Shown: positions 15,158-55,800 of the stretch, one piece after another
Layout of the letters: the number at the start of each line of letters is the position of its first letter
How positions within the stretch are numbered: position 1 is the stretch's first letter
IMG/VR virus record: IMGVR_UViG_3300033066_001296
Location: 1-64,000 of that record
DNA length: 64,000 nucleotides
Source of the DNA: a virus
Taxonomy: Duplodnaviria; Caudoviricetes
Reading direction: 5' to 3' (one strand)
Translations under genes and position numbers: made by a program
The notes under the pieces: generated by a model
The model's database searches: none
Told to the model about the DNA's origin: nothing
What the model saw: the letters and a program-made list of their open reading frames with translations, nothing else

Positions 15158-15510
15158 GCCTTTGTCTTTCTAGTAATGGGGGCAGGGGCCAAGATCGAGT
15201 TTCGCTGGATATCAAGCCCCTGTGCCCGCACATCTGCCTGGATCACAGAAACCAGTGTTTCCAGTCTCCTGAACTCGGAATCGAGACTCGCAAGTCTCGT
15301 GTCGAGCGTTGAGATTCTCGTGTCGTGGGTTGCAAGCTTCTCCTTGATGGTTTCAAGCTTCGCATCCACACCTTCGATTGCCTTGAGAATCTTCTCCGTG
15401 GTCTTTTCCGTCTCTCGATCTCGTTCGGAGAGTCTGCCCCAAGCAACGGCCAGCACAATCAGGGGTGTGAGCAACGTCACGGCAAGTTGAATCCATGGTA
15501 GAGGGTTCAT
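15154..15510 (-). CDS. transmembrane plus coiled-coil protein (i-spanin- or holin-like)
   Basis: N-terminal TM WIQLAVTLLTPLIVLAVAW followed by heptad repeats. Confidence 0.6.
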   Translation of the reverse strand: MNPLPWIQLAVTLLTPLIVLAVAWGRLSERDRETEKTTEKILKAIEGVDAKLETIKEKLATHDTRISTLDTRLASLDSEFRRLETLVSVIQADVRAQGLDIQRNSILAPAPITRKTKA

Positions 15511-36382: not shown

Positions 36383-37780
36383 TCAAGCCCCGTGAATTAG
36401 AAGGGACCAGCGTTTATACCTAGCGCTGGTTCCGGGTGCGGTTGCATCCGTGCGTGCTGGCCAGTCGGCATCGAGACGCCACGAAGCCTTCACGAGATCC
36501 TGGAAGCGGTTCTGAGGTGCGAGGATGATCATCTTCACACGCTCTGCGACGATCGAGATGCCATCGTTCGACACTTGAACGTCCGTCATCTTGCCGAGCA
36601 TACCCGCGTCCGTGAGGTACATCAGAGGATCGCGGTAGTACTCCATCATGCCACCGCGGCCCGTGAAGAGCATACGGTGGATTGGAGTGCCCGATGCCGT
36701 ACCATCGCTGTAAAGCTCGCCTGCGAATGGGTCCTGCTGCGAGAACGTGATACCGTCATTTGGATACACGGTGTTCACGTAAGGGCACTGGTTGTTCATG
36801 ACGAACGAGCAACCAAGCATCATACCGAGCACCATGTCACGATACATATAGTGCTCAGGACGGCCCGTCAGCATTCGCTGGATTTCGGTATCCGCAAGGA
36901 TTGCCGTCTGCGAGTTCGGATCGATGTGAACGTGATACGTACCATCTTGGAAACGAGGCACGTTGTTGATCTGAAGCTTCGAGACCACCGTACGGATGTC
37001 CTGAAGGCGAGGAAGGTCCGTCGAACCGATGTCGTTGACCGACGTTCCGCCACCCACGAACGACACTTCCGAGCGATCGGAGGCAAGAACCGCCGCACGA
37101 TCGGACCAGTTCATTGCCACTGCGAGCGTCAGAATGCCAGGACCCACCTCATCTCCCGCCGTGTCAGGAGTGAAGCCGACCACCGATGCAGCCGTACCCC
37201 CCACCGTAATTGCAAGAGGGTTGGACGAAGACACGGTATTGAACCGAACCTTCGAGCCCGCTGCAAGGTCTGGACGACGGGCGCGAGTGAAGCCATTGAG
37301 GCGCTTCACACGGAGCGAGGCCGAGCTTCCGCCCGACGCAGCACCATCTGCAACCGTCCAACCCGACTCTGCGGTGTTGTACATGCGGTCACGCACGATG
37401 ATGTTGAGCGTCTGTGCCGCCTGGAGACCCAGCTTGCGAATGTGCTGGAGGAACAAGTTCGCAATCGCCATCGTTGCCGTAGGCATGTGGGTGTCGATTG
37501 CCGAGCCGTACGTGTGAAGCTCAGCTTCCCACTGCTCGACAGCATACGACTGCGGAGTTGGGTCTTCGCCGGGACGGATCGGACGAGCATCGGGAGCCAT
37601 CAGACCGTCGCCCGAGAAGACGTAGGTGTCTCCTGCCTCTGCGGGCCAAGGCACCGCCGACACTTCCCCACGGAAGATCAAGTTGGGGAAGAGCACATCG
37701 TGGAAGGCTCTCTCAAGAAGACCTTCCTGAACGATCGCGCGAGTCGTTGGTGTGTTCAGAAACGTTGAAAAATCTGGCAT
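36383..37780 (-). CDS. major capsid protein (HK97 fold, N4-gp56-like)
   Basis: 465 aa after the scaffold; QWEAELHTYG, LQINNVPRFQDGTYHVHIDP motifs. Confidence 0.85.
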   Translation of the reverse strand: MPDFSTFLNTPTTRAIVQEGLLERAFHDVLFPNLIFRGEVSAVPWPAEAGDTYVFSGDGLMAPDARPIRPGEDPTPQSYAVEQWEAELHTYGSAIDTHMPTATMAIANLFLQHIRKLGLQAAQTLNIIVRDRMYNTAESGWTVADGAASGGSSASLRVKRLNGFTRARRPDLAAGSKVRFNTVSSSNPLAITVGGTAASVVGFTPDTAGDEVGPGILTLAVAMNWSDRAAVLASDRSEVSFVGGGTSVNDIGSTDLPRLQDIRTVVSKLQINNVPRFQDGTYHVHIDPNSQTAILADTEIQRMLTGRPEHYMYRDMVLGMMLGCSFVMNNQCPYVNTVYPNDGITFSQQDPFAGELYSDGTASGTPIHRMLFTGRGGMMEYYRDPLMYLTDAGMLGKMTDVQVSNDGISIVAERVKMIILAPQNRFQDLVKASWRLDADWPARTDATAPGTSARYKRWSLLIHGA

Positions 37781-37851: not shown

Positions 37852-38694
37852 TCACATATCTCCGAGATCGAGGCCCTGAGAACGTGCGTACTCACGAAAT
37901 TCTGCGGAAGACATCTTCATGGCGTGCTTCCGCTCCGTTGTTTCCGGTGTGACCTGTTCCTTGATCTCCTTTGGAGAAGGCTTTGGTGCAGATCCAGCGG
38001 GTGCTGTATTCGCAGGCACCTCTTCCACCGGAGCTTCCTTCTTCTCGGGAGCCTGGATGTACTGACGGAAGTAAGCTGGCTTCTTGGCCTTGAGCTCCTT
38101 GAAGAACTCGTTGTGGTCGAACTCCTTGCGCTTCGCATCAGGAAGACGCTTGAAGTGACCATCGAGCTTGGAAAGCACGGCGTCTACTTCTTCAGGATCA
38201 ACTTCAGCGAGGTATGCGTCGTGTCGAAGCACCATTTCGTTCTGGAGATTTTCGCATTGGCTGCGCCAGTGTCGAACCTTCCCTTCGAGCGAACGGATCT
38301 CAGCACGAAGCGTACGGACTTGCTCTTCCAGATCTGAGATCTGCTTTGCAGATCGGTTGTCTGTTTGAGGCTTTTGACCCGAAGGTTGACCCTGAGCTGG
38401 CCGCTTCTGGAACATCTCATCCAGCGAGCCGAAGCCCAGCGCCTTTGCCTTCTTCTCGTACATCTCCTTGAACGAAGTGCGACCCGCTTCACGATCCGCT
38501 TGGCGTTGCTTCGCAAGATCGCTTTTGGCGGGTTGTGCCTTCTGTTGAGGCTTGTACTTGGGAGCGGGCGTAGCCTCTTCAGGCTGCTCCTGCTCCGGTT
38601 GAACCTCAACATCGGGCACAACCTCGTCAATAAGTTCTGCCACTTCGTTTTCGTTTTCCAGATTCACATCCGGTGTATCGTTCTCAGTTGCCAT
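37852..38694 (-). CDS. capsid scaffolding protein
   Basis: Acidic N-terminus, coiled coil, C-terminal MSSAEFREY helix; directly upstream of the capsid gene. Confidence 0.8.
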   Translation of the reverse strand: MATENDTPDVNLENENEVAELIDEVVPDVEVQPEQEQPEEATPAPKYKPQQKAQPAKSDLAKQRQADREAGRTSFKEMYEKKAKALGFGSLDEMFQKRPAQGQPSGQKPQTDNRSAKQISDLEEQVRTLRAEIRSLEGKVRHWRSQCENLQNEMVLRHDAYLAEVDPEEVDAVLSKLDGHFKRLPDAKRKEFDHNEFFKELKAKKPAYFRQYIQAPEKKEAPVEEVPANTAPAGSAPKPSPKEIKEQVTPETTERKHAMKMSSAEFREYARSQGLDLGDM

Positions 38695-39588: not shown

Positions 39589-39885
39589 TTACCACTTCAC
39601 CTTGTCTGCCCAATATGCAGCGGAGAGCTTGCCCTTGGCGATGTTGGCCGCATGGCGAGCCTTGAAGGACTTCCGCTTTTTGGTCATACGTTCCGATTCC
39701 CCTGCCTTGGGCTTTCCGGCTGTTTCGGCTCCCTGCTCACCAAAGCGAATGGTCTTCACAGTGTCGCCCTCTTTGGCGACCACAATGTGAGACTTCGTAG
39801 GGTGATCGGGCGTGCGCTTTGGCTTGTTGTAGCCTGCTACACCCGCCTTTTCCAACCTGGGGTCTCTCTTTCCAGAGCCCTTCAC
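39589..39885 (-). CDS. conserved small basic phage protein
   Basis: DPRLEKAGVAGYNKPKRTPDHPTKSH...SFKARH...SAAYWADKVKW resembles a recurrent phage family; GTGA-coupled start. Confidence 0.8.
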   Translation of the reverse strand: MKGSGKRDPRLEKAGVAGYNKPKRTPDHPTKSHIVVAKEGDTVKTIRFGEQGAETAGKPKAGESERMTKKRKSFKARHAANIAKGKLSAAYWADKVKW

Positions 39886-39998
39886 TTCTTCTTGCCCTTC
39901 TTCACGCAAGACTTGTCGATCATCTTTTGGATGAGCTTCTTGTCCTCTGCTTCGTCATCGTGCTTCTTGGGTGTCTTCTTTTGAGATTTCTTTGCCAT
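39882..39998 (-). CDS. 38-aa Lys-rich peptide
   Basis: TGATG and GTGA coupling at both ends. Confidence 0.55.
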   Translation of the reverse strand: MAKKSQKKTPKKHDDEAEDKKLIQKMIDKSCVKKGKKK

Positions 39999-40480
39999 CA
40001 CATCATCCTTTCCTGCCCCTCGTCCTCTTCGCTTGGACTTGTCGTGAGCTGTCCTGCGCGCCAGAGCCATGCACCTACGAGGATTGGCTCTACTTCGACA
40101 ATCTCGTTCTGAACACCCTCCTGTACGGCAAGCGCTTCGTCTGGGCTAATGCCAGATAGTAGTTCGGGCAGTCCATCACGCCAAAGATCCACCATCTCAA
40201 GAATCTGATCTGCGTGGTCTTCGGGAAGTTCGACCTCATCGTTGAGGAGAACTTCGGGGATCATATCGTGGATCTGCGACTCGATTTCCGGTAGGTGCAT
40301 CTGGGTCAGCAGAATGATCTGATCCATCTCATTGGGGGTTTTCCCCTCCATGGCATCCGAACCCTCAAATGGCTCATCGCCGGGGAACGGCTCCTGGTCC
40401 TTAGGAGCATCCCAACCCTCGGGCGTGGAGCGAGGCTGATCGCCTCTAGCTTGTGACCAATTTGAAAGATCGAGTGCCAT
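39998..40480 (-). CDS. acidic hypothetical protein
   Basis: 160 aa, Asp/Glu-rich. Confidence 0.65.
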   Translation of the reverse strand: MALDLSNWSQARGDQPRSTPEGWDAPKDQEPFPGDEPFEGSDAMEGKTPNEMDQIILLTQMHLPEIESQIHDMIPEVLLNDEVELPEDHADQILEMVDLWRDGLPELLSGISPDEALAVQEGVQNEIVEVEPILVGAWLWRAGQLTTSPSEEDEGQERMM

Positions 40481-40517: not shown

Positions 40518-40715
40518 TCAATCCGCTTGCATTCGCAAAGCAATGTCGCCGGGATCTTCTTCGTCATGAACCCCCGGCATATCAAGATCGCCAAACTGAT
40601 TCTCAGTTTGAATGTGCAGAATTACATCAGCTACATCAACCTCCTTCTGTAGTTCGAGGGGGTGTGAGTGCCCGTGAATCTTTGTTGGAAGATTCATGTT
40701 TCTTGGGTGTTTCAT
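40518..40715 (-). CDS. small hypothetical protein
   Basis: ATGA coupling. Confidence 0.5.
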   Translation of the reverse strand: MKHPRNMNLPTKIHGHSHPLELQKEVDVADVILHIQTENQFGDLDMPGVHDEEDPGDIALRMQAD

Positions 40716-41512
40716 TTGTGACCTTTGCGAAGCAGCCCACGCTTCTGGAAGAGGCGGTCAAATTCTCGAGCAATGGGATCAAACTCCCAACGATCCCAAT
40801 ACGCGCGATAACCATGCTCACGCCAAGAATTTGCATCTGCAAGGAACCCTTTGACGCCCTGTACGGAGCCTTGGCGACGCATGACCCACTGCTCGTAGGA
40901 GCGCGCGAAGAGCTCTTGCGGCCTGAGCATATACGTGGTGGTTTTGAGCCTTGGCTCGTTGTGCTCGGTCTTGTTCCTCGTATGCTGTTCTGTGAGCTTC
41001 CGCACGCTATACGATTTGTAGATTGCCCGCATCAAAGGTGCAAGTTCGTGATTCGGATCTTTGGTTGCCTGAAACGATGCACAAGCTGAGTATGTAGGCT
41101 TGCCGCTTCCAAACAATCTGTGATCCAGGAAGTGCCCATACTCATGAACGAGCGTGTTGATGGGGTATTTGCCGTGTTTATTGATCAAGATCGAGCTTCG
41201 ATCCGAGTGTGGCTCCCATGCGCGGTAGACACCCATGGAACCCGTATCTCCCACCACGTTGACCTTCAGGTGGTACAAGTCCCTGGGAACCCGATGCGTA
41301 CGGTCAATGGTGCGTAGCGCCTCCGCAACGCCCTGGTTTGCCTTGGACGCGAATAGCAAGCCATAGCTTACGGAAAGCCTGTCAGACGCCTTTGCAGGGG
41401 CATTAGCGGGCACATGCGGAGACTGGTCCTTGACCCAATAGGCACGGCGCACAACGCCCGTGCTGGTGTGTGCGGAGAGAATGCGTCGATGAAGACCGGA
41501 AAGGTTTTTCAT
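40712..41512 (-). CDS. motif-tagged zincin metallopeptidase (polyvalent-protein MPTase-like)
   Basis: N-terminal SGL...VVRRAYWVK; HEYGH and ELFARSYEQW motifs. Confidence 0.75.
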   Translation of the reverse strand: MKNLSGLHRRILSAHTSTGVVRRAYWVKDQSPHVPANAPAKASDRLSVSYGLLFASKANQGVAEALRTIDRTHRVPRDLYHLKVNVVGDTGSMGVYRAWEPHSDRSSILINKHGKYPINTLVHEYGHFLDHRLFGSGKPTYSACASFQATKDPNHELAPLMRAIYKSYSVRKLTEQHTRNKTEHNEPRLKTTTYMLRPQELFARSYEQWVMRRQGSVQGVKGFLADANSWREHGYRAYWDRWEFDPIAREFDRLFQKRGLLRKGHK

Positions 41513-41659
41513 GCGGAAGGTGCCCCGAGAAAAAGAACGGAGGGTGTATTTTGTCCGTAACCTTTTCCTCGCTTCTCTCGTACTACCATACAGTCTTTAT
41601 TACTATTATTTATTATATATAGTATAGAGTGGGTTGAGGGGGGCTCTTTTGATGCTCGC

Positions 41660-42178
41660 TCAACGAGTATAGTTGCGGTACGCATCATAGGCTCGATGAA
41701 AGCTCTGATGGTGCTTGTTGTAGAGTCCCGCACCCTCTACTACGGTTCTATAGAGCCCATACATCTTGAGCCCTGTTCCAGCGAGGTGTGCAAAGCTTCC
41801 AAGAGCTCTCTCCGTGGATTCCCTCATATTGAGTGTGCGAGCGAGAACATGACCACTCAATCTTCCGGCTTGTCTTCCCGCTTGACCTCCAAAGTGACCT
41901 CCCACAAGAGCTGCACCAAATGCAGCCTCATGAGCTCCAACTCCATGGCTCGCCGCTGCTCTCATTCCATACTTTGCAGCATGGTGAGCTCCCACAAGAG
42001 CTCCTAGTCCCGCTCCAAGATTACCCATTCCGTGTCCGAGAGCTCTGCCTTGATCCTCTCGACGAGATGGATGTTCCATGCTCTTGAACGAGCCTTTGGG
42101 ATCGGACTTGACCCAATAAGAGCGGAGACCCTTTCGAGTGCTCTTCTTGATCTTCTTGAGGCCAGATCTAGTCTTCAT
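41660..42178 (-). CDS. array gene H: basic N-motif plus glycine zipper
   Basis: MKTRSGLKKIKKSTRKGLRSYWVKS; GNLGAGLGALVG. Confidence 0.8.
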   Translation of the reverse strand: MKTRSGLKKIKKSTRKGLRSYWVKSDPKGSFKSMEHPSRREDQGRALGHGMGNLGAGLGALVGAHHAAKYGMRAAASHGVGAHEAAFGAALVGGHFGGQAGRQAGRLSGHVLARTLNMRESTERALGSFAHLAGTGLKMYGLYRTVVEGAGLYNKHHQSFHRAYDAYRNYTR

Positions 42179-42672
42179 CACGCCATTCTAGCAGCTTGAA
42201 CCGTATCGTACAGCTTCCGAGCGTGGAGGTATCCACCCGCAGCCATTGCAAATGTACCCAAAGCTCGCTGATGTCGAAGCTTCATCTTACCTTGAGCAAC
42301 ACGATTTCCAACACCGCGACCGAGCTTATAGCCCGCAAAAGAGCCTCCGGCGTAACCCGCGATATGGCCCAATCCTCCGGCGACAATGCCAGTTCTCATT
42401 CCCGATATGAGGGCTTCTTGAGGTCCAAGACCTTTCTTTGCAGCCCTGTGCCCGCCAATAAGCCCCCCGGTGATGGCTCCTCCAAAGAGTCCCGCAGTGC
42501 CACCTACACGCCCGCCAAGCGCGCTTCCAAGCACGCCCATACCGCGGCGAAGGTGGTTGTGAGAAAACCTCTTTTCTGCCTCTGCGGAGGTCCAGTAAGC
42601 GCGACGAACACGCTTCCCGTTCTTACCCTTTACAGACTTTACGACTTTCTTGAGCCCTGCTCGACTCTTCAT
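42178..42672 (-). CDS. array gene G: basic N-motif plus long glycine zippers
   Basis: MKSRAGLKKVVKSVKGKNGKRVRRAYWT; GxxxG repeats. Confidence 0.8.
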   Translation of the reverse strand: MKSRAGLKKVVKSVKGKNGKRVRRAYWTSAEAEKRFSHNHLRRGMGVLGSALGGRVGGTAGLFGGAITGGLIGGHRAAKKGLGPQEALISGMRTGIVAGGLGHIAGYAGGSFAGYKLGRGVGNRVAQGKMKLRHQRALGTFAMAAGGYLHARKLYDTVQAARMA

Positions 42673-43205
42673 GATGATCTCCTTGGTGTGCGAATTGCAC
42701 GCGCTGTTGCCTTACCAGCCTCAGCAATATGATGATCTGCAATTGCGTGTCCTAGAAAAGACACAGCCTCGTTAGCGAGGAAGCTACCGACTCTCTTACC
42801 ATACTTTCCAGTTGAACCTCTCAGGCTGCGACCAACGGCTTTGCCAGCACGCTCTGCTCCATAATCGATCAGGCGTTGCCCTGCGGCATTGACGAGGTGC
42901 TCTCCGAGTCTGGCTCCAAGTCCTTTTCGGAATTTGTGAAAGCCTTTAACAGCAGCGCTCTTGTGCTTTTCGATTTCAACTTTGTGCTTCCAGAGGTTCT
43001 CATTGGAAAACGAGGCTCGGTGCTTGTATGCCAGAGCTCCCAAACCTGCGGTTGCAAGAGCGCCCGCAGTACCAATCAGAGCCTTTTTGCCATGCTTCTT
43101 TGCGAAAGCAGAAACGGAAGACTTCGCACGCACCCAATAAGATCTCCGTACAGAGCCCTTCTTGCCTTTGACAGTCTTGGTTACTTTACGAAGTCCAGCT
43201 CTCAT
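42669..43205 (-). CDS. array gene F: basic N-motif plus hydrophobic helix
   Basis: MRAGLRKVTKTVKGKKGSVRRSYWVRA; ALIGTAGALATAGLGALAY. Confidence 0.8.
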   Translation of the reverse strand: MRAGLRKVTKTVKGKKGSVRRSYWVRAKSSVSAFAKKHGKKALIGTAGALATAGLGALAYKHRASFSNENLWKHKVEIEKHKSAAVKGFHKFRKGLGARLGEHLVNAAGQRLIDYGAERAGKAVGRSLRGSTGKYGKRVGSFLANEAVSFLGHAIADHHIAEAGKATARAIRTPRRSS

Positions 43206-43840
43206 CGCTGCATCCTATTCGCAACCCACTCGGCACCGCGCTTGATGTGGGGAGCTGCTCTACCTCTTGCCACAAAGCCTCCCGCGTGGCCACCTAGGAA
43301 GCTTCCCACTGCACCTCCTGCACCACCACCAAATGCAGTACCAAGAGCACCACCAAGACGAGAGCCCACATGAGTTCCAATGTGCTCTGCCGCAGCTTCA
43401 CCTCCAACGTGGGTCATATGCTCAGCAAGCTTGGACCCTTCACCTCTGCGCCACTGTGTGAAGCCCTCTCTAGCCTTGCCCCAGGCACTACGAACGTGCT
43501 CGTTGGCCCGTTCTCTTGCCGAGGGCTTTCTGTTTGCAGGCTCATGAAATGCGGTGTGTCCCGATCCAGAACCGAGTTGCAATGGAGAGCTGCCCGCCCC
43601 TAGAAGCTTGCCAGAGCCGCCCTTGCGCATCCGATGGAGTCCATATGCCGCAGCCCCGGCAAGAGCCAAACCCCCTACGATCTTCCCCGCGTTACGGCGA
43701 AGAAAGCCGGGTTGCTTCTGAGCAACTGGCTGGCCCTTCCTTGCGGCCTGGTTGGCTTTAACCCAATAGGTTCTGCGAACAGTGCCTTTCTTTCCTTTGA
43801 CTGTCTTCTGAACCTTCTTGAGCCCCGCTTTGTTGGCCAT
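43202..43840 (-). CDS. array gene E: basic N-motif, hydrophobic helix and glycine zipper
   Basis: MANKAGLKKVQKTVKGKKGTVRRTYWVKA; GGALGTAFGGGAGGAVGSFLGG. Confidence 0.8.
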   Translation of the reverse strand: MANKAGLKKVQKTVKGKKGTVRRTYWVKANQAARKGQPVAQKQPGFLRRNAGKIVGGLALAGAAAYGLHRMRKGGSGKLLGAGSSPLQLGSGSGHTAFHEPANRKPSARERANEHVRSAWGKAREGFTQWRRGEGSKLAEHMTHVGGEAAAEHIGTHVGSRLGGALGTAFGGGAGGAVGSFLGGHAGGFVARGRAAPHIKRGAEWVANRMQR

Positions 43841-44292
43841 TACTTCCTCTTTCTAGGCTTGCGTGTGGCTACGATCTTGCCAGACTTGGAAGGTCCAGTT
43901 CCAGATCGACCGCTCGAGACCCCTGGGCCAAGTTGCAAAGGAGCTCTTCCAGAGTTGTGAAGATCCTGGCGCTTCCAGTCCGCATTGGAGTTTGCGTGTT
44001 GGGAGACTGCCTTGTTGTGAAGATTCTTCCAGAATCCACCATGGCGATCCACAACATGCTTCCAGTGTTTTGGGGTCGTCTTGGGCGGTTGGATGCTCTT
44101 GTACTTATGATGAGCAAGAGCCAGACCGGCTGCAAGAACCGCACCCCCAAGGATCTTGCCCTTGTGGCGAAGAGCAAACGTGCCCGCATTCTTTACAGAT
44201 TGCTTGGCCCGGACCCAATAAGATCTCCGCACAGATCCTTTTCGGCCTCTGACAGTTTTTGTGATCTTACGAAGTCCTGCTTTGCTCGCCAT
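43840..44292 (-). CDS. array gene D: basic N-motif plus hydrophobic helix
   Basis: MASKAGLRKITKTVRGRKGSVRRSYWVRA; TAATG coupling. Confidence 0.8.
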   Translation of the reverse strand: MASKAGLRKITKTVRGRKGSVRRSYWVRAKQSVKNAGTFALRHKGKILGGAVLAAGLALAHHKYKSIQPPKTTPKHWKHVVDRHGGFWKNLHNKAVSQHANSNADWKRQDLHNSGRAPLQLGPGVSSGRSGTGPSKSGKIVATRKPRKRK

Positions 44293-44714
44293 TAGCCGGT
44301 TCTCTTGACCCTGCCGTGAGTATTGCCCTGCGCATCTTTGATTGGATATCCGCGCCAAGCTCTATAACGCTTTGTAATTGCATCAGAAGCTTTCCCGTAC
44401 GGCGTTGAGGACCAACCCTGCGCATAGCCTTTTGCAGCGTGCGCCTGCACCGCATCGGGCATCCACTGAGCTTGCTGTGCAGCTTTCGTGAACTTCACGG
44501 ACCTCTCCGATGCGTGGAATCGCGCATGTGCCCTTCCAGCCCCGGCAATGATGGCGAATGTGCCCAAAGTGGCAAGGGCAATCTTACCTTTGTGACGCCC
44601 AACCGCTCTTGCTACTTTTGATGCAGAGGTCTTAGCGCGGACCCAATAAGAGCGCTTAACCAATCCACGCTTTCCGCGGACGGTCTTCGTAACTTTCTTG
44701 AGTCCTGATCTCAT
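44292..44714 (-). CDS. array gene C: basic N-motif plus hydrophobic helix
   Basis: MRSGLKKVTKTVRGKRGLVKRSYWVRA; HKGKIALATLGTFAIIAG. Confidence 0.8.
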   Translation of the reverse strand: MRSGLKKVTKTVRGKRGLVKRSYWVRAKTSASKVARAVGRHKGKIALATLGTFAIIAGAGRAHARFHASERSVKFTKAAQQAQWMPDAVQAHAAKGYAQGWSSTPYGKASDAITKRYRAWRGYPIKDAQGNTHGRVKRTG

Positions 44715-45262
44715 TAGTCAGCTCTCTTGCGACTCACAGCCTTGCGAACTCTCGATCCCGCAGCACGAGCTCCTGATGCGACTGCACTACCTGCACGGGA
44801 AGCGAGTCCCGATACCGCATTCTTCGCGATTGAGCTTCGGCTCATGCCAGCCTTACGCCCGCCTCTCACGAAGTCTGCGGCATTCCGAGCTGCCCCTCTT
44901 GCATCACTTGCGGCCTTATGAGCCTTCGCAGCGACACCCACCACACCATGAGCCCCGCGCTCTGCTGCGCCCTTGGCACGGTCCTTCAGACCGCCAAAGA
45001 CGGCCTTCGCAGCATCACCATGGGACATGCCCATGCCGCGGTAGCCCTTCACGAACTTGGCACCCTTGTAAGCTGCGGCGGCTCCGAGAGCCAGGCCAGC
45101 ACCCGCGGCAATCTTGCCCTTGTGCTTGCCGATGAACTTACCTGCCGACTTTGCTGCACCCTTCACGGCGCTCGAAGCCTTGACCCAATAGGAACGCTGC
45201 ACCGTTCCCTTCTTACCCTTTACAGACTTTGTAACTTTACGAAGCCCAGCACGATTTGCCAT
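44714..45262 (-). CDS. array gene B: basic N-motif plus Ala/Gly-rich body
   Basis: MANRAGLRKVTKSVKGKKGTVQRSYWVKA; SD AAGAGGT. Confidence 0.8.
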   Translation of the reverse strand: MANRAGLRKVTKSVKGKKGTVQRSYWVKASSAVKGAAKSAGKFIGKHKGKIAAGAGLALGAAAAYKGAKFVKGYRGMGMSHGDAAKAVFGGLKDRAKGAAERGAHGVVGVAAKAHKAASDARGAARNAADFVRGGRKAGMSRSSIAKNAVSGLASRAGSAVASGARAAGSRVRKAVSRKRAD

Positions 45263-45313
45263 TTTTTACCTCTTACAGACTTTGGTATCTGTCAATATCA
45301 AGCGGACTCAGAA

Positions 45314-45733
45314 TCAGCCGAGTCCGCCCTTACCCTTGCCAAACAAGTTTTTTCTTCCTGCAACAGCACGAATACCTTCGTGAGCCATTGCACCTGCAAA
45401 ATGACCAACACCATGGCCAACATCGGAAGAAAGAAAGTTTTTGATCTTACCCCCAAGCGTGCGACCATGTGTTTTTGTCTTCTTTCTCATGTGTGCTGCA
45501 AGAGTGTGGTTGACTGCCGCAGACGCCAAAGATGCACCTCTCACACGATGAGCACCTAGCAGACCACTAGCAAAGCCTATTTTGGCTCCCATTTTTGCGG
45601 AAGCCATCTTTGGCCCTTTGCGGAATGCTGCCAAATTACGCTCTCCGGCTTTAACCCAATAAGAGCGCTTCGTAGAGCCTTTCTTACCCCGCACTGTTTT
45701 AGTTACTTTGCGAAGTCCGGCACGATTTGCCAT
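45314..45733 (-). CDS. array gene A: basic N-motif plus Gly/Ala-rich body
   Basis: MANRAGLRKVTKTVRGKKGSTKRSYWVKA; SD GGAGG. Confidence 0.8.
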   Translation of the reverse strand: MANRAGLRKVTKTVRGKKGSTKRSYWVKAGERNLAAFRKGPKMASAKMGAKIGFASGLLGAHRVRGASLASAAVNHTLAAHMRKKTKTHGRTLGGKIKNFLSSDVGHGVGHFAGAMAHEGIRAVAGRKNLFGKGKGGLG

Positions 45734-45764: not shown

Positions 45765-46019
45765 TCAAATGTTCTCTTTTGTAGAGTCCAGCAAAAGTTT
45801 ACGCTGGTTTCTCAACTCAAGCCAAGCACGAATTCCAAAAAGATCATGGAGGATATAGCGGAGGATCAACCAGATCCCCAACCTCCATGCGGTTCCAGAG
45901 GTCATGTGCGCGTGAAAGATGGCGGCATCCCCAGGTCCCGCTACGTAGAGCTCCACCATCGGACCTGTTCCGATGGCAGTAACCTCTGCGTACCCATCGT
46001 TTCGATGAAACGGTCTCAT
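45765..46019 (-). CDS. small hypothetical protein
   Basis: ATGA coupling to the methylase gene. Confidence 0.45.
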   Translation of the reverse strand: MRPFHRNDGYAEVTAIGTGPMVELYVAGPGDAAIFHAHMTSGTAWRLGIWLILRYILHDLFGIRAWLELRNQRKLLLDSTKENI

Positions 46020-46933
46020 CGAGTTCTCCCTTCCTTCCTGAGCGTCTTTTGGAGCGCCTTCTCGAGATTGTTACTTGCAGAGAATTTTGGCTTGAAGCCG
46101 TGACGAATTTCAAGTGATTCTGGATAGTTCATCCACAATACTTCCGTCTTCTGTCGATCCTCTTTATCGAGAAAGTTCGCTGAGCTTGCGTTTGCGCTGT
46201 ATTCGACCCTTCTCCAGTCTTTGTATGCCTGATCGTAAAAGTCTCCAGCGTATCCAGAAATTGCAATGAGAGCTCCCCGTCTAGTTGCTTCCAAGTTTGA
46301 GGCCAGGAGCTTCTCATGCCATGCAGCATCCATCTCGTGCTGATATCCGTGCCCCGCACCCCGGCTTGCCGGATGGTACGGAGGATCTTCATAGATGAAA
46401 ACGCCACTCTTGCCGTAGTACTTCACCAACTCCACGGCATCGGTGTTGTTGATCTCGACACCACGAAAGAACTCTGCGTATTCTTGAAAGAGCTCGAGCT
46501 TGTTACTTACAGCTCTCGCTACGGAGCCTTTGGGGGTTCCACGGCGGAAGCCTTCGATGGTTTGCTGCATCCCCGCAAAATTCTGGGTCTGCCGCACCCA
46601 AACCCTGCGCGCGAGCTCTAGCTCGTCTTCTGGGTCTTGCGTCCAATCTCGACACGCTCGTTGCTCATCAAATGCGTAGGGGGTAAGCTCGCAAACCCTC
46701 CGAAGTTCCTCGGGACGTTCTCGAAGTACTTTGAAGAACGTAACAACGCCCCTGTTCAGATCATTGATGACTCGATTTGGGTAAAGCCCCTCGGGCAGAG
46801 CAAAGAAGAGCGCACCCGAACCGAAGCACGTCTCTACGTAGGTCTCAGGGCCTTTTGGAAAGTGCGGAAGTATCTTCTCTGCAATCTGGCTCTTTGCTCC
46901 GTAGTAACAACCAAATACTGATCCTTTAATCAT
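46016..46933 (-). CDS. DNA adenine methyltransferase (D12/Dam family)
   Basis: YYGAKSQI, YVETCFGSGALF, INDLN, EDPPY motifs; target sequence not determinable from sequence. Confidence 0.9.
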   Translation of the reverse strand: MIKGSVFGCYYGAKSQIAEKILPHFPKGPETYVETCFGSGALFFALPEGLYPNRVINDLNRGVVTFFKVLRERPEELRRVCELTPYAFDEQRACRDWTQDPEDELELARRVWVRQTQNFAGMQQTIEGFRRGTPKGSVARAVSNKLELFQEYAEFFRGVEINNTDAVELVKYYGKSGVFIYEDPPYHPASRGAGHGYQHEMDAAWHEKLLASNLEATRRGALIAISGYAGDFYDQAYKDWRRVEYSANASSANFLDKEDRQKTEVLWMNYPESLEIRHGFKPKFSASNNLEKALQKTLRKEGRTR

Positions 46934-47889
46934 CCTCGCCTGCGTCCTCTTGTATGTGCATTAACCTTTACGGAACCTGCACCTCTTGCCGCGGGTGACT
47001 TGCTCTTGCGATTTGCCTGCACTTCTTCCTTCGGTGCGACGCGAGTTCCACCAGCCTTCGTCTTCACAGTTGCAGATCCAGATGCGTGCATCTTGAGGAT
47101 CTGAAGCTTGCTCTTCTCGCGTAGGGTCTGTCGTATTGACTTCTGCCGATCCCGCACTCCCTTTGTGTTGGACTCCTGTCCTTGCGACTTCACCTCGTTC
47201 AAGCGCTCCTGTGCGGCAATCTTGGCCGCAGCTCTCTGAGCTTGGGAAGCCTGTGCCACGGAATGCACCTCTCGAAGACGTTGGATCTTCTTCTTGTGAG
47301 CTTCTTCCTTGAGCTTGTCACGGGCTGCATAGTCCTGGGCACGAGTCTGTGCCTTGTGATCCATAAGCTTCTCGTGCTTGATCTTCAGACCACGGACGTG
47401 CTCGTCCACCTTCTGAACTTGCCTACGATGCAGCTCACCCCGTGTGGTTTCTCGGATCATGTCCGCATGAGGCCCACCATACTTCTGTGCGTGGTCCCAG
47501 ACCTCGCGAAGATGCGTGTGGCTCATTTGTGTGATCTCAGGATCACCGCGCTTCACCTTCGCAATGTTCTCGAAGATACGCTGATCGTTCTTGAGCCTGG
47601 ACATCGTGCCTTGGAATGCAGTGTGTGCAAACGCAAACAGAGCGGTCTTGAGCAGACCGCTCCTGCCACTGCGCATACCACGTTCGAGGAACTTGCTGAT
47701 TGCAACACCACCCGCCATACGAGCGGTGGCACGCCCAGCATCCGAAGTTACGTATTCCTTGGCAGACGGTAGGTTTCCGTGGACACCCTCGTAGTCCCTA
47801 CGATGCTGGTTGATGTGCTCTTTACCAGCACCATACGCACTCTTTACGTGCTCTCCAGCATTACGGATATGCTCACTGAACTTTGCCAT
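46930..47889 (-). CDS. large basic helical protein (candidate internal head protein)
   Basis: Lys/Arg/His-rich, coiled-coil middle; extended -10 TG-A-TAATCT (47896-47904) 6 nt before ATG. Confidence 0.7.
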   Translation of the reverse strand: MAKFSEHIRNAGEHVKSAYGAGKEHINQHRRDYEGVHGNLPSAKEYVTSDAGRATARMAGGVAISKFLERGMRSGRSGLLKTALFAFAHTAFQGTMSRLKNDQRIFENIAKVKRGDPEITQMSHTHLREVWDHAQKYGGPHADMIRETTRGELHRRQVQKVDEHVRGLKIKHEKLMDHKAQTRAQDYAARDKLKEEAHKKKIQRLREVHSVAQASQAQRAAAKIAAQERLNEVKSQGQESNTKGVRDRQKSIRQTLREKSKLQILKMHASGSATVKTKAGGTRVAPKEEVQANRKSKSPAARGAGSVKVNAHTRGRRRG

Positions 47890-49206: not shown

Positions 49207-49823
49207 TTGTCCTCGGGCTCGACATCTCAATGACCGCAACAGGTTGGGCTATTGCCAATGTAAGCGGTCAGAAACCAAGCTTGCTTCGTTGCGGTGTGAT
49301 TGAAACCAAGAAGAGCAAAGGTAAAGGTTCCGGTACGCTCGACTCCATTCGCAGAGCGCACCACATCTATGTTGAACTTGGAAAGGTACTTTCTTCAGAG
49401 CTTGGGCTGAAGATCGATCTGATCTGTCTGGAATCGATGAGCTGGCCCCGCAACGCCTCATCTTCGATCAAGATGGCAATTGCATGGGGGGCGATTGCTC
49501 CGCTACTTGCGGATCGCCCCCTCATTCCTGTTGGGCCGATGGCTTTGAAGTTGGCGGTTAGCGGGAAGAAGACTGCTTCAAAGGCAGAAGTGGCTTCTGG
49601 GGTTCGCTCTTTGATGCCGAAGGCGACTTCGCGGGTTTTGAAGGAGTTTGTCCCGAAGGCTTCTTTGCAGGAGCATTGTTGGGACGCGCTTGGGGCGATC
49701 CTGGCTTCGATGAAGACGGAGAAGTTCCAGCTTTTGAAGGCTGGCCTTTCGGAGCGGAAGACTGCCCCGATTTCGCCACCCGAGGAGCTCCGGGTTTCTG
49801 GAGAGCCCCCTGCTTACCCATGA
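49203..49823 (+). CDS. ruvC: RuvC-like Holliday junction resolvase
   Basis: VLGLDISMTATGWA, ICLES, KLAVSGKKTASKAEV, EHCWDALG catalytic motifs. Confidence 0.88.
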   Translation: MIVLGLDISMTATGWAIANVSGQKPSLLRCGVIETKKSKGKGSGTLDSIRRAHHIYVELGKVLSSELGLKIDLICLESMSWPRNASSSIKMAIAWGAIAPLLADRPLIPVGPMALKLAVSGKKTASKAEVASGVRSLMPKATSRVLKEFVPKASLQEHCWDALGAILASMKTEKFQLLKAGLSERKTAPISPPEELRVSGEPPAYP

Positions 49824-51714
49824 CGCCCATCTGGTTTGGATCTGGTTGAGGCTGTGAAGCCTGTACCATCGCCTTGACCATCTCCTGACTCTGGGCTGCT
49901 GTGTTGGCTACCCAGATGTCCTGGTGCTTCGATCGATACTGAACAAGCGTCAGATCTCCATCGGGGATTGCACCAAGCTGCAAAGCACCTTCACGATACT
50001 CGTTGATCGTGCAGATACCCTGCGCAAGAGCTTCCTTCCACGTCATTGCATCAGGCCCCTCTGGCTCTTCGGGAGCTGCTCCTTCTTCGCCTTCTGCACC
50101 CTCTTCGCCCGTATCGGCAGACATTGCCGCGTCCTCTTCCGCCTTCTTCAGCGCATGGATCTCCTTGAGCGGATCCAACTCTGTGAGACCCATCCAATAC
50201 TTGATGGCTGTCTCCTTGGTCAGAACCTCGGAGTCTTTGCCAGTTGTAGCAATGCGCTGTGCGGTCTCGATATCTGTGAATGTAGGTTTGAAGTAGTGAG
50301 GCCACTGGAGCTCGCAAACCTGTCCATTGCCCACCACACGAGGAATCGTAACTTGATCTCCATCTGGCTGCGCGATGACCCTCTTTGGAACGTAGACACG
50401 ATAGCGAATGCGCCGCACCGAACCATCTTCGTTTTGTACTTCGCGAATACCCTCTACAGTTCGTACAGCCTTTAGCACCTTCTGGCAGATACGGATGATT
50501 GCAGGTCCATACTGTTCTCGGAGAGAGTCTGCCTTCTCGATCATGGAGTGGAAGATTCTCTCGATCTCCATGGCAGTCTTTTCGCCATTGTTCTGGAAGA
50601 GAATCTGATCTGGAACACACTGGCAGAGTCGATAGATGCGCTCCTCTAGCTTCTCAAGAACTGTGATTCCAATAGTAGGTCCAGAACCGCTCAGTTCGAG
50701 ATACTGAGCGGTGCTGCTTGGCCCAAGAAACAGAGCATTGTCCGAACCCTTTCTAACAGTGCCGGGGTTCTCCATATCTGTAACGATATTAAGCGTTGGA
50801 TCACAGTTAGATACGGTCCCGTACCAGATTTCAGCGAGCAACTGATCGACTGCTTCGAGCATTCGATAGGCACCGTGACAATCGGAGTCCCCATCGATCT
50901 CGTCATCCGATCGGAGGTTTTGGATCCACTCGTACGGCACAAACCCCAGACCGTGAGGAACTGTGTTTCGCTGCATGTACTCCCAGCGAGGTTCCTTGTT
51001 ACGGCATTTGATGGGCCTCCATACCGTATCGTTCTCTTCGTCCACAACGCGCCGATACCAGTACCAGATGGTCTTGTAGCGACCGTCTTCCTGCTTCTCG
51101 TCCTTCGGGTACGTATACTGAATGGTCAGCTTCGTGAGCCTGTTGGAGCCCCTACCATCGAACTCAGGTTCAGTCCAACGAGGGTCCAGCGCTTCAAACT
51201 GGCACATACCATCCAGAATCTTGAAACCCACACAAGCCGAGCCTGTAGCACCTCCGTAGTTACGGGCTTGCGTCATTGCAGCCCAGAACTCGCCCTGCTT
51301 TAGAAGTGCGGAGAGGTAATCCTGTGTGCGCTCATCATCAGGCACAAGAACTCTTGGTTGCTTCTGATTGGAAAACAGAAGTCCTGTGAAGCGGGAGACA
51401 ATGTTTCGTACAATGCCAAGTGGAGCGACGGGACGACGGAAGTCACGGGGGACATCTCCTGCGTTCTCCATTCCGGGCGGCACAACACCCTCTCGCTGGA
51501 CGGCATCCCACATATCGCCCGAGAGGACGGGCCTCCCGTTCCATTCGTGACCCTTTCCGTCGTGCTCGCAGACACGGAAATAGCTCCATAGGTTATTGAG
51601 CTCTCTTTGCCGTTTGGAGAGCTTCATGTGCTTCGATCCAGGCTCCCCACTCGATTCTCTTAGGAGATCCCCTGTAAATTCCCGAGCTGTGTCGGGTTCG
51701 CGCGTTACTGGCAT
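49558..51714 (-). CDS. portal protein with long low-complexity C-terminal tail
   Basis: RNIVSRFTGLLF, QARNYGGATGSACVG, HGLGFVPYEWIQN motifs; adjacent to the terminase genes. Confidence 0.85.
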   Translation of the reverse strand: MPVTREPDTAREFTGDLLRESSGEPGSKHMKLSKRQRELNNLWSYFRVCEHDGKGHEWNGRPVLSGDMWDAVQREGVVPPGMENAGDVPRDFRRPVAPLGIVRNIVSRFTGLLFSNQKQPRVLVPDDERTQDYLSALLKQGEFWAAMTQARNYGGATGSACVGFKILDGMCQFEALDPRWTEPEFDGRGSNRLTKLTIQYTYPKDEKQEDGRYKTIWYWYRRVVDEENDTVWRPIKCRNKEPRWEYMQRNTVPHGLGFVPYEWIQNLRSDDEIDGDSDCHGAYRMLEAVDQLLAEIWYGTVSNCDPTLNIVTDMENPGTVRKGSDNALFLGPSSTAQYLELSGSGPTIGITVLEKLEERIYRLCQCVPDQILFQNNGEKTAMEIERIFHSMIEKADSLREQYGPAIIRICQKVLKAVRTVEGIREVQNEDGSVRRIRYRVYVPKRVIAQPDGDQVTIPRVVGNGQVCELQWPHYFKPTFTDIETAQRIATTGKDSEVLTKETAIKYWMGLTELDPLKEIHALKKAEEDAAMSADTGEEGAEGEEGAAPEEPEGPDAMTWKEALAQGICTINEYREGALQLGAIPDGDLTLVQYRSKHQDIWVANTAAQSQEMVKAMVQASQPQPDPNQMGVMGKQGALQKPGAPRVAKSGQSSAPKGQPSKAGTSPSSSKPGSPQARPNNAPAKKPSGQTPSKPAKSPSASKSEPQKPLLPLKQSSSR

Positions 51715-52034: not shown

Positions 52035-52882
52035 GCATCTTGAAGCCCGGACAGCAAAGACCCTCGATCAACCTTACGAATCGGAAGTCCTTTGTAGAGA
52101 ACTCTGTGCCAGCCCAAGTACCTGTAACGGAGAACTTCGAGTCTCCCAATCCTGGTCTTGCAATCCAGACTATCGCAAAGCTTCCCAACCAGCGAGGGAA
52201 GGGCGGAAGACCTACCAAGGCCCAGAGTCGCGATGCAGGCTACATGGAAGGTGCTCAGAAGGCCATCGAGGAGATTCGAGAAGCAAACCCTCCGCTTCTC
52301 GCTGCCGCACCTCACCGTTCTGGAAAGATGGAGATTCAGAGATCCTGGGAAAAGGCATACGACGCCAAGGAGAAGTCTCTCGAGCGGCAGGAAGCCGAAG
52401 CCATCCTTGCAGCGCGGAGCGAAAGGCTTGCCGCACTTGAAGAGGAAACCGCCATTCGCAGAGCCAACCGAAAGGTTGGCGTCGCCGCAGGGCTTGCTGC
52501 ATTCACGATGGTGCGAACGCTTGGAGATGTGGCAGAGCGACTCGACAAAAAGGTGCGAGAATCGAAGGACATGAGCTTCTCGGAGCTTCGGGGTGCAATC
52601 AACACACTTTCGGGCTCTGTATCCAAGATGCAGTCCGCAATGGAGACTGTGGCACGCCTCGAACGCACGATTACGCGGCGACCGCTTGATGAAGAGGGTG
52701 TAAATTCTGTTAGCGAAGACGATCTTTCAAACCTCTCTGTTGAAGACGCAGAGAAGATCCTCGAGAACATTCTCAAAACGACCTATCACACGGCAAAGAG
52801 CGCAGGAATCAAAATTTACGATGGTACTGCGGAGGTGGTAGAGACTTCAGAAGAGGTGAGCAATGGCGAAGTTGAATCCTGA
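52031..52882 (+). CDS. probable terminase small subunit
   Basis: Directly upstream of and overlapping TerL; helical and coiled-coil. Confidence 0.5.
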   Translation: MSILKPGQQRPSINLTNRKSFVENSVPAQVPVTENFESPNPGLAIQTIAKLPNQRGKGGRPTKAQSRDAGYMEGAQKAIEEIREANPPLLAAAPHRSGKMEIQRSWEKAYDAKEKSLERQEAEAILAARSERLAALEEETAIRRANRKVGVAAGLAAFTMVRTLGDVAERLDKKVRESKDMSFSELRGAINTLSGSVSKMQSAMETVARLERTITRRPLDEEGVNSVSEDDLSNLSVEDAEKILENILKTTYHTAKSAGIKIYDGTAEVVETSEEVSNGEVES

Positions 52883-55800
52883 TCTCATCAAGTTCATCGC
52901 AAAAGAAGATCCAGAGCACGCTGTACAACTTGAACGAGACTACAAGCGTGCCATGATCATTCTTGCGCGTAATGATCCCGCCATGTTTTGTCAGTATGTC
53001 CTTCGTAATGGCAAAACAGGAGGTGCGATCTACCTCACACCCGAGCATGTGGCTTTGCACAAGCTGATTCAGCCGTGCTCTAGAACTGCGGTTTGGACTT
53101 ATCCTGAGTTTGGCAAAGGTCTAGACCTAAATACTGACATTCCGACACCATCAGGATGGGTAAAGATGTCAGATATTCAAGTTGGGTCATCTGTATTCGG
53201 ATCTGACGGCATAGAGGCTCGTGTCATTTGGGTAAGCCCTATCCAAAACATCCGAGTTTTTGATGTAGAGTTTGACGATGGTGTAGTTATTCGTTGTGAC
53301 GAGTCTCATTTGTGGTCCGCATACTCATGCAAAGATCGTCACAAGAATCCACAACCGCTCAAACTCGTGAGCACGTTGGAAATGTCCAACTCCGTCAAGC
53401 ATGGAGATAGGAACCAGTGGGGAATTCCAATCGCACCTCCGGTCCAATATCCATCCAAGCAATTGCCGGTGCATCCATATCTTTTGGGTGCTTGGCTAGG
53501 AGATGGTGACAGTAAAGGACTAACTTTGACTTGTCACCAAGAAGACATTGCGATTGTGGATCGGTGTTGCCAGCTATCCGGTGAGTTGGTCAAAAAGGTT
53601 CCAGACAAGCGTAAGCCTCATGTACTGCGCTGTAAGATTGGTGGTTCTGAACTTCAGAAAAAGTTCAGGCAGCTTGGGGTTCTTGGAAAAGCAGGTTGCA
53701 AATTCATTCCTGCCGAATACCTCACAGCTTCCGAGGACCAAAGGAGGGAGTTGTTGGCGGGGCTGCTAGACACTGATGGTACTGTCTACACGAGATCTAA
53801 CGATGTGTCGTTTGTAGAAGTATCTTTTTGTGTTGAACGTCTGGCACTCGACACGCTTGAGCTTGTCAGGTCCCTGGGCTTCAAGGCCAGGCTCCGTTCT
53901 GAACCCTCTAAACTCTACGGCAGGGTTGTAGGTGCACGACATAGGATTTTCTTCACAGCCAGGGAACCAGTCTTCAAACTGGAACGCAAGCTCAACAAGC
54001 AGAAACTCCAAGCTGCTCACGGGAGCAAAGCAAACGCGCGATACGTTGTAAGCGTTACGGAAGTTCCCTCTGTTCCGACCAAATGCATCAAGGTTGATTC
54101 GCCTGATCACACCTTTCTTGCGGGGCGCAGCTACACAGTCACGCACAACTGTGAAGAGTCTGGAAATTCTGTACTCCTTCGGGATGGCACTTGGAGAAAG
54201 ATCGAAGATCTGGCAGATGGGAACTTTCACGAACTTCTAACGTGGGATCTACACCAACCCGCACTCAAACCAGTTACAGGACGTGTAACTGCGAACGGGA
54301 AACGTCCCGTGGTTCGTTTCCACTTGGCAAACGGGCACAAGATCGGCGTTACACAGGAGCATCCTCTTTGCGCTGCGGACGATGTTCAGTGGCGGCAAGC
54401 TCAGAATTTGAAGGTGGGGGACCGAATCGTCTGCCTCCGTCATCTTGAGCTCGAGTCCACAACACCCGAAAGTGACGTACCCTCCGAAGAAGCAGAGATT
54501 CTTGGATATCTCCTAGCGGGCGAGGTTCGAGGTCGGAGAGTCTTTGTTCGCAAGCTCTGGAAAAGCGAGCATTGGAGCTCTCGCCGTGCTCGGATGTTCA
54601 AGAAAGCCATGTGGGAGCTTGTGGACCACGATCGGGATTGGTTGGAAGTGGTGCTCTCCAAGAGCGCTGATTCCACCGATATGCACCCTTACGTGTTCAT
54701 AAATCAGCTCGCCACAATTCAAGACAAGTATCCCGTGGATCTGAGCCCAGAAATCTGGAGGCTCCACAAGACGGGACTTCAGAGGCTCCTTACTGCATTC
54801 TTTGTAACGGCATTTTGTGATCCTCGGAGGAAGATCTGGACAAGGGGTCGCACAGTAGGCGTCTCTGACAAGCGCTACCCCAAGGGCTTCGTTCACAAGT
54901 GTTACGAAACTGGTGACATGATCCGCAGGCTTGCACTGCGATTGGGGGTGTCCATAATCGTAAAGCAGGACTATTACTTTACGAAAGAGTGGCTGATCAG
55001 CGTACCTAATCCCCAAGTAAAGATCTTTTACCCATCGAAGGTAGAATACCCAGACCAGATTCCGTTGATGGAGGCTGTTGAGATTGTAAAGATCGAACAT
55101 GCAGAGGCGGAAACCTGGGCAGTTGAGATTCTGGATAGCGAGCACAGCTACATTTCTGGGGGTGTGCTCTCTCACAACACCACGCAGATGATCGGGCATG
55201 TTCTCTGGCGTCTTGGGAAAGACCCCAACATCTCGATTGGTATCTTTCAGAACTCCAAAGGCTCCGCGATCAACACCCTCAAGACGATCAAGGAGTACAT
55301 TGAGGATTCTGTAGAGCTCCACGACGTGTTCCCGAACTTGGTTCCGGGTACAACATGGAGCGAGCATCAGATCACGGTTCCACGAAGCACCTTCCGACGT
55401 GACCCTTCCGTCAAGGCGGTGTCTCTCGGATCGAAGTTCATGGGGGACCGCTTTGATGGTCTGATCCTTGACGACGTGGACAACCCTGATACCGTGCTCA
55501 CAGAGGAATCGAGAAAGAAGACAGAGGATTGGGTTCGTCGAAGTGCTCTCTCCCGTCTTACAGAGGAAGCCTGGGCAATCGCCATCGGCAACATCTGGCA
55601 CGAAGGCGATCTCATGCACCAGCTTGTTAAATCGGGCTGGAATGCAGTAAAGCACCCTGTCCTTCGCCCTGATGGAACACCTCTCGATCCAGACCGCTTT
55701 ACGTTGGAGCGCATCTACCACATTCGCGATGTGGATCAGAAGCCCATCGAGTTTGAGCGCCTTTACATGCTCAAAGAGCGGAGGGATGGCGATCAGAGAT

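Follow-up and report, generated by a model that had tools for sequence, protein, structure and literature searches.

A predicted N-terminal beta-hairpin shared by nine head-region proteins of an uncultured myovirus, a candidate capsid-loading address

How proteins beyond those of the shell are loaded into the heads of tailed phages is understood for very few models, namely T4, P1 and the MuF-domain proteins. In T4, the capsid-targeting sequence is a leader of roughly 10 residues that is removed by cleavage at an L/I-x-E site. All that the very diverse T-even internal proteins have in common is a capsid-targeting sequence, which brings them into the scaffolding core (PMC3012670). The first 30 residues of the P1 protein DarB are enough to bring a reporter protein into heads (PMC9024508). 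MuF-type domains form part of the head and bring effectors into the virion, and the metallopeptidases of polyvalent proteins were proposed by Iyer et al. to process head-packaged proteins (PMC5512222). Here, a 25-residue module was identified at the N-terminus of nine proteins encoded side by side in 64,000 nucleotides of viral DNA (the window), which are the first 64 kb of a 79.8-kb IMG/VR virus record (IMGVR_UViG_3300033066_001296) judged to be about 90% complete. One of the nine is a putative zincin metallopeptidase, and the module is a candidate capsid-loading address.

The nine genes (A to I) are consecutive on the minus strand, running from position 45733 down to 40712, and lie between the portal gene and the scaffold-like and capsid genes (Table 1). 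This placement had been given in an earlier note, made from the letters of the window, and was borne out by matches of the flanking genes to phrog_145 and phrog_1357. All nine proteins carry the module, hereafter the tag, with the consensus [AS]GL[KR]KVxK[TS]V[RK]GK[KRH]G[ST]V[RK]R[ST]YWV[KR][AS], in which G6, L7, G19, R23, Y25 and W26 are invariant (9/9). The hairpin that the tag is predicted to form is 5 residues shorter in H, G has a 1-residue insertion, and the tip is diverged in I. A profile built from the nine N-termini scored 45-67 bits on the nine frames (E = 4e-13 to 8e-20); together with the translations, these scores upheld the note's account of eight genes with a common N-terminal tag, shortened in H, and a ninth with a diverged copy. 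In the six-frame translation of the window beyond the nine genes, the next best match to the profile had E = 0.83. In the whole 79.8-kb record, the tag was found in the same nine genes, with no further copy.

Among 148 tagged proteins, conservation was 2.1-4.3 bits per position from [AS]GL to YWV[KR][AS] and was down to about 1 bit one residue further on, in a count whose anchor fixes R and Y by construction. By this profile of conservation, the tag is a discrete, portable and sharply bounded N-terminal module. The tag paralogues of A to F were 76% identical in amino acids versus 66% in nucleotides, with the same codon at 42% of conserved residues. High protein identity combined with low codon identity indicates that the tag copies are old paralogues, kept by protein-level selection. 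On the same codon comparison (42% shared), recent duplication, gene conversion and a nucleotide-level element were each rejected as the cause of the shared tag.

In AlphaFold2 models of proteins I and E, the tag was a two-stranded beta-hairpin (strands 7-16 and 19-28) with a predicted local distance difference test score (pLDDT) of about 75-79, in agreement with the basic beta-hairpin guessed at in the note. Mean pLDDT was 87.5 for protein I and 50 for protein E, which was modelled as the hairpin followed by a low-confidence helical remainder; because of its pLDDT of 50, the E model was unfit for fold search. In H and its orthologues, five turn residues are absent and the base of the hairpin is kept (GL..., ...R.YWV), with the same short tag in the orthologues from related loci L004 and L007, and the tags of the zincins likewise combine a variable tip with a conserved base. 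Variation at the tip with retention of the base fits a hairpin whose base carries the function. Scans of A to H against Pfam, PHROGs and NCBIfam gave chance-level matches only and no family, in line with the note, which had not recognised the motif as a named one. The best match of the tag profile among PDB sequences was only to copper amine oxidase (E about 6), and a search of the ESM Atlas with the tag returned unnamed viral clusters only, with scores < 0.8. Compared with the T-even internal proteins (IPI, IPII, IPIII and Alt), the array proteins have no PHROG or Pfam match to internal-protein families, and the array tag is a 25-residue basic predicted beta-hairpin.

For its spread, the tag profile was searched against 1.84 billion cluster representatives, a search that the note had suggested, and 200 clusters were matched at E ≤ 0.001 and 56 at E ≤ 1e-10. 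In the 150 best-listed of the 200 clusters, the tag started within the first 14 residues in 150/150, and the proteins were 59-333 amino acids (aa) long. About a dozen IMG/VR contigs carry the tag, a total to which a degenerate DNA pattern contributed only two. Eight distinct contigs and one near-duplicate were compared as loci. The shared gene order was TerL, portal, p221, p319, Dam methylase, tagged genes, zincin and sometimes more tagged genes, followed by the acidic protein, p127, p154, scaffold and capsid protein. The capsid proteins of these loci were 48-97% identical to that of the window, and the number of tagged genes was 3-11 per locus, in keeping with the shared synteny sought and with the "expandable" cassette proposed in the note. 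Scans of 185,579 prokaryote genomes with sequence patterns found no prophage copy of the tag, and a viral-contig scan using the divergent member P0112 gave no match.

In locus L004, from a phage about 95% identical to that of the window, the flanking genes are 93-100% identical to those of the window, yet 11 tagged genes are present versus 9. One of the additional genes duplicates D in tandem but ends in a different C-terminus (10001-10875), and the other is a tagged gene located after the acidic protein (14716-15162); by this comparison, they are a recent gain or loss. A difference in copy number despite near-identical flanks points to fast turnover of tagged genes. In two other loci, tagged genes are located downstream of the capsid gene (L001, 19268-19735; L003, 19919-20107) and encode non-hydrophobic cargo with an NHxGPxSGSDHS-like motif.

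The phage was identified as a myovirus from the tail sheath, tape measure and baseplate wedge genes in the record. Its major capsid protein shares 30% identity with that of Streptomyces phage Kromp, and blastn of the array region against 50,697 phage records gave no match; as judged from sequence, it is related only distantly to cultured phages. By the searches described above, the tag family is real and previously undescribed, and is a feature of an uncultured myovirus clade.

Gene I matched the Pfam family LPD1 (PF18796) at E = 5.8e-6, with 26.7 bits versus a gathering cut-off of 27, and phrog_4529 ("minor head protein and DNA pilot") at E = 4.6e-12; relatives of the zincin module also occur inside phrog_4529. 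When residues 40-260 of the gene I model were used for structural comparison, all matches were zincins: PPEP-2 (Z = 9.1, root-mean-square deviation 3.3, 146 residues aligned), PPEP-3 (Z = 8.8) and the catalytic domain of lethal factor (Z = 8.4). These matches came from the wider aligner; in the PDB, Foldseek with the same model had found no structure of any kind at E ≤ 0.001. Orthologues of gene I were present in 8/8 distinct related loci examined, each with a diverged tag and an intact HE[YV]GH motif, and HEYGH was conserved across nine orthologues. Two tagged zincin-like relatives from metagenomes, P0024 and P0148, have lost HExxH (HWGEH-like and TEYAH at the aligned position) and may be inactive derivatives.

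In longer relatives, the zincin/LPD1 module is C-terminal and stands behind Phage_min_cap2 (P0151 and P0152) or Phage_Mu_F (P0153), and a 557-aa "head morphogenesis" protein of Akkermansia phage Chambord has it as its C-terminal third. No match at E ≤ 1 was found in the whole record for Phage_Mu_F (PF04233) or for the prohead proteases S78, S77, ClpP and S49 (PF04586, PF03420, PF00574 and PF01343). A 293-aa gene in locus L008 looked MuF-like by eye; it had no Pfam match and was not claimed as such. Without a classical prohead protease, the tagged zincin is the only recognisable protease of the head module, and hence a candidate maturation or processing enzyme, in agreement with the role that Iyer et al. 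suggested for polyvalent-protein metallopeptidases. The note had found no recognisable prohead protease in the window and had supposed that the tag may not be cleaved. Its statement stands for the classical enzymes, but gene I had been missed. As gene I carries HEYGH, the zincin fold and the tag, cleavage of the tag is at least possible.

The zincin/LPD1 combination, the Dam methylase and the phrog_7595/phrog_220 domain are modules typical of polyvalent proteins, here found beside head genes (Iyer et al. 2017, PMC5512222), and the relatives of gene I that are fused to MuF or Phage_min_cap2 recall the MuF-fused effectors. Unlike in those systems, the modules are encoded here by separate small genes, MuF is not detectable, a short hairpin stands on the peptidase where relatives carry MuF, and most of the tagged cargo is non-enzymatic. 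The T4 system differs in the same component, in that T4 has a gp21-type serine protease and the putatively co-targeted protease here is a zincin.

The bodies that follow the tag in A to H are extremely basic (28-41 Lys plus Arg and 3-9 Asp plus Glu) and rich in Gly and Ala. Relatedness between bodies was found only for E with F (BLASTP E = 4e-7, C-terminal part) and G with H (E = 1e-5), and was weak; the short motifs HKGKI in B, C and D and PLQLG in D and E, listed in the note, are present. In 148 relatives, the median net charge of the body was +17 and Gly plus Ala made up 34%. Nearly all of the 150 tagged cluster representatives were likewise very basic and Gly/Ala-rich, with recognisable domains limited to zincin/LPD1 and weak glycine-zipper matches, and PHROG scans of ten unusual tagged cargos gave no family. 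The most widely conserved cargo is of the E type, which has orthologues in related loci and consists of a PGFLRR.AGKI motif, a helix and a Gly-rich C-terminal region. The "variable cargo" of the note is thus variable in that the bodies are mostly unrelated, but the variation is narrow.

The note had further described the bodies as membrane-active, with glycine zippers, and had listed a DNA-entry channel among their possible roles. The best 19-residue hydropathy in A to H was 0.88-1.47, below the usual membrane-helix threshold of 1.6, and the Pfam glycine zipper (PF13488) had no match at E ≤ 0.1 in these proteins. By these two results, the bodies are at most putatively membrane-active, and the note's glycine zippers had no Pfam counterpart in the window's own proteins. 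For a myovirus that has a tape measure, there is no obvious need of channel formers carried in the head.

The array resembles the T-even internal proteins in several respects: a myovirus, several small basic proteins with diverse and fast-evolving bodies, a short shared N-terminal sequence, and a protease that would share the same compartment. It differs from them in that the array genes form one coupled array between portal and scaffold. The likeness to P1 lies in a myovirus with an N-terminal signal of at most 30 residues and with head-internal proteins that include the metallopeptidase-bearing DdrB (PMC9024508, PMC5512222). The Dar proteins are without a consensus N-terminus (PMC9024508), whereas one sequence-defined tag is reused up to 11 times in the array, and the cargo of P1 consists of large enzymes. 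Encapsulin cargo-loading peptides resemble the tag, in its proposed address role, as short terminal peptides that direct varied cargo into an HK97-fold shell. They usually lie at the C-terminus, are short and hydrophobic, and attach directly to the shell protein; homology to the array tag was not found, and the phage shell differs in also packing DNA.

The hairpin was interpreted as an address by which internal or ejected head proteins, and a protease along with them, are loaded into the capsid, at a probability of roughly 0.55. The strongest argument is one of domain replacement: the hairpin sits where relatives of the zincin have MuF, and the same hairpin heads the small basic proteins encoded beside the zincin in the head operon. 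The note's proposal of the tag as an address gains from this, as the tag is a portable N-terminal module on unrelated bodies in a conserved head slot and zincin/LPD1 is fused elsewhere to MuF or minor-capsid-protein-2 domains, both known to bring proteins into the head, which supports an address indirectly. Packaging and ejection, which the note had joined to it, are matters that we infer, as we do the binding partner, cleavage and any membrane, exclusion or anti-defence action. Under the address interpretation, the hairpin would dock each protein while the procapsid assembles, with the portal, the scaffold or core, or the inner face of the capsid as the site. The eight fast-evolving basic and poorly folded proteins would sit with the packed DNA as counter-ions and would leave the head together with it. 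The zincin/LPD1 metallopeptidase would reach the same place via the same address and would probably cut cargo or core proteins, either inside the head or after ejection.

In its proposed mode of action, as a capsid-targeting principle with a co-targeted zincin, the tag would parallel both the T4 targeting sequence, to which it is unrelated in sequence, and the MuF domain of polyvalent proteins. A further proposal is held more tentatively, with somewhat less than even odds: that the array and its zincin form a self-contained loading and processing system, unrelated to the T4 sequence and to MuF, in which a portable beta-hairpin loading tag is used by up to 11 genes per phage and the co-loaded zincin replaces the classical prohead protease.

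Several results weigh against the capsid-loading address. A tblastn search with B found no tag, and no cultured relative, in the 50,697 phage records. The tag is about 70-80% identical across the clade while the portal falls to 40% and the capsid protein to 48%; conservation above that of the candidate partners is not what a protein-protein address usually shows, and DNA binding would fit it as well. With cargo diversity this low, the tagged proteins may form a single paralogous family that shares a conserved head domain, and the tag may not be a general one. The untagged polyvalent-type neighbours (Dam methylase and the phrog_7595 protein) show that the tag is not on everything in the slot.

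Part of this evidence is what would be expected if the tag were a nucleic-acid-binding beta-ribbon, with the array encoding histone-like, DNA-condensing internal proteins or pilots bound to the DNA end, all of one paralogous family, and with a DNA-tethered zincin. The tag has a net charge of about +10 and a conserved Tyr-Trp pair, the bodies add their median of +17, a DNA ligand would account for a tag far more conserved than any candidate protein partner, and T4 internal proteins are known to contact DNA phosphates (PMC3012670). Such an explanation was nevertheless regarded as unlikely. Proteins bound to DNA cannot pass through the portal into the head, so a mechanism of incorporation is still needed, and simple basic DNA binders usually evolve fast, but here the Gly, Leu, Tyr and Trp positions are nearly invariant. 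Because the proteins still need a way into the prohead, DNA binding and the capsid-loading address can coexist.

If the array proteins were instead late, membrane-anchored proteins outside the virion, each having its basic hairpin in the cytoplasm and a single Ala/Gly helix, they could act in superinfection exclusion, lysis timing or organisation of the assembly site at the inner membrane. A hydrophobic Ala/Gly helix is present at a fixed distance, near residue 49, in most of the 148 relatives (17-residue hydropathy ≥ 1.2 in 104/148 and ≥ 1.6 in 43/148), basic residues occur on the helix flanks, and Pfam Gly-zipper_Omp was matched in 5/150 tagged cluster representatives. The helices of the window proteins are, however, below the usual membrane-helix threshold, the same tag is found on a soluble zincin and on several cargo types without a hydrophobic helix, and the translationally coupled genes hold a strictly conserved place inside the head-assembly operon. 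Together these points make a membrane location outside the virion improbable.

A role as propeptide or recognition handle for the zincin, by which toxic basic or membrane-active bodies are kept inert until the tag is removed and which involves no targeting, was given similarly poor odds. A tagged zincin that is catalytically intact by its motif accompanies the array in every related locus examined, and the sharp module boundary offers a place where a cut could fall. Against this, no conserved cleavage motif follows the tag, the protease is itself tagged, which would be odd for a pure substrate handle, and HExxH is lost in the tagged relatives P0024 and P0148; the handle is, moreover, compatible with a targeting role rather than opposed to it. 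Last, a long export signal of the twin-arginine translocation (Tat) type, made up of the N-terminus (RR-x-aromatic-aromatic) and the mildly hydrophobic Ala/Gly helix after it, was disfavoured as highly improbable because the first position of the pair is Arg in only 62% and otherwise K, Q or H: RRSYWVK does resemble the Tat consensus and the helix follows directly in a few relatives (P0073, P0094 and P0127), but it usually begins 15-25 residues later, conservation ahead of the pair exceeds that of any signal-peptide n-region, the models place the RR within a beta-strand, and the tagged zincin is without a hydrophobic region.

As regards the junctions between the tagged genes, stop-to-start overlaps of 1 or 4 nucleotides link B to H (1 nucleotide between the stop of B and the start of C), in accordance with the mostly overlapping genes of the note, and suggest coupled translation. 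The gap between A and B is 51 nucleotides and that between H and I 147. For gene D, a longer frame started at TTG (up to 44358) was judged unlikely because the tag begins at the ATG at 44292. The 147-nucleotide gap before the zincin gene (41513-41659) contrasts with the tight coupling of the genes upstream and includes a run very rich in A and T (TATACTATATATAATAAATAATAGTAATAAAG on the minus strand), which may be a phage-specific promoter. A sigma-70 scan found nothing in 41513-41659, and the promoter and terminator scans gave results at chance level only.

Of the untagged neighbours, the acidic protein has a net charge of -21 to -48 across the related loci (-32 in the 98%-identical copy of L004 and -48 in L008, 12784-13275), an invariant Trp near the N-terminus and a conserved C-terminal motif resembling LVxAWLWRAGEL. 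It may serve the basic cargo as a counter-ion, chaperone or core protein, a role offered as a guess; in T4, the acidic core likewise balances or chaperones basic cargo. A complex prediction for the tag with this protein had a score of 0.00 and gave no verdict, speaking neither for nor against binding. The Dam methylase has the same position in those related loci that cover it and is a tandem duplicate in L005 (7774-9623); its placement resembles that of the methylase modules of head-packaged polyvalent proteins. The 319-aa protein may be another internal head protein. Its C-terminus was considered as a half-tag and rejected, being unconserved among orthologues. The 106-aa protein is an untagged solo copy of a domain found elsewhere inside giant head proteins. 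The large terminase, encoded on the plus strand (52863-57659), has 1598 aa, with an ATPase part at residues 35-432, a nuclease part at 780-1083, and endonuclease-like and RNR-intein-like insertions.

Table 1. Tagged genes A to I and untagged genes of the surrounding head region. Positions are those of the window; K+R and D+E are counts of basic and acidic residues; bits are scores of the tag profile.
Feature	Coordinates	Strand	Length (aa)	Tag position	Description
Gene A	45314-45733	-	139	45647-45733 (first 29 codons; 65.6 bits)	Basic Gly/Ala-rich body; K+R 30, D+E 3
Gene B	44714-45262	-	182	45176-45262 (66.9 bits)	Ala-rich basic body; K+R 41, D+E 6, Ala 25%
Gene C	44292-44714	-	140	44634-44714 (56.4 bits)	Hydrophobic segment at residues 44-63, hydropathy 1.28
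Gene D	43840-44292	-	150	44206-44292 (66.8 bits)	ATG at 44292
Gene E	43202-43840	-	212	43754-43840	PGFLRRNAGKI motif after the tag, Ala/Gly helix, conserved Gly-rich C-terminal region
Gene F	42669-43205	-	178	43125-43205	Hydropathy 1.47 at residues 42-60
Gene G	42178-42672	-	164	42583-42672 (1-residue insertion; 58.4 bits)	Gly-rich body
Gene H	41660-42178	-	172	42104-42178 (hairpin tip shortened; 45.5 bits)	Gly/His-rich body
Gene I	40712-41512	-	266	41426-41512 (diverged)	Putative zincin metallopeptidase (HEYGH) with LPD1-like C-terminal region
Acidic protein	39998-40480	-	160		Adjoins the array; conserved in related loci; no family match
106-aa protein	39589-39909	-	106		phrog_7595, E = 4e-42; internal stretch (534-604) of phrog_220 "minor head protein and DNA pilot"
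Scaffold-like protein	37852-38694	-			Downstream boundary of the slot, together with the major capsid protein
Major capsid protein	36383-37780	-			phrog_1357, E = 1.2e-10; downstream boundary of the slot
D12-class DNA adenine methyltransferase (Dam methylase)	46016-46933	-			Directly upstream of the array; untagged; MethyltransfD12, E = 3e-20; phrog_56, E = 2e-51
319-aa protein (p319)	46930-47889	-	319		Untagged; conserved; net charge +34; Gly/Ala hydrophobic stretch and long charged helical region; no family match
Portal protein	49558-51714	-			phrog_145, E = 2.7e-9; upstream boundary of the slot; 40-93% identity in related loci

If the capsid-loading address is correct, the tag would be a third, sequence-defined solution to the loading of phage heads, used on at least two unrelated classes of cargo and in up to 11 copies per genome. 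It would provide a handle for testing what docks cargo in the procapsid, and with the zincin it becomes worth asking if a zinc metalloprotease can stand in for the prohead protease. A compact tag of this kind may also find use in engineering, to pack foreign proteins into phage heads, and would then be a handle for cargo delivery. For the biology of these phages, it would connect the "disaggregated" modules of polyvalent proteins with T4-like internal proteins.

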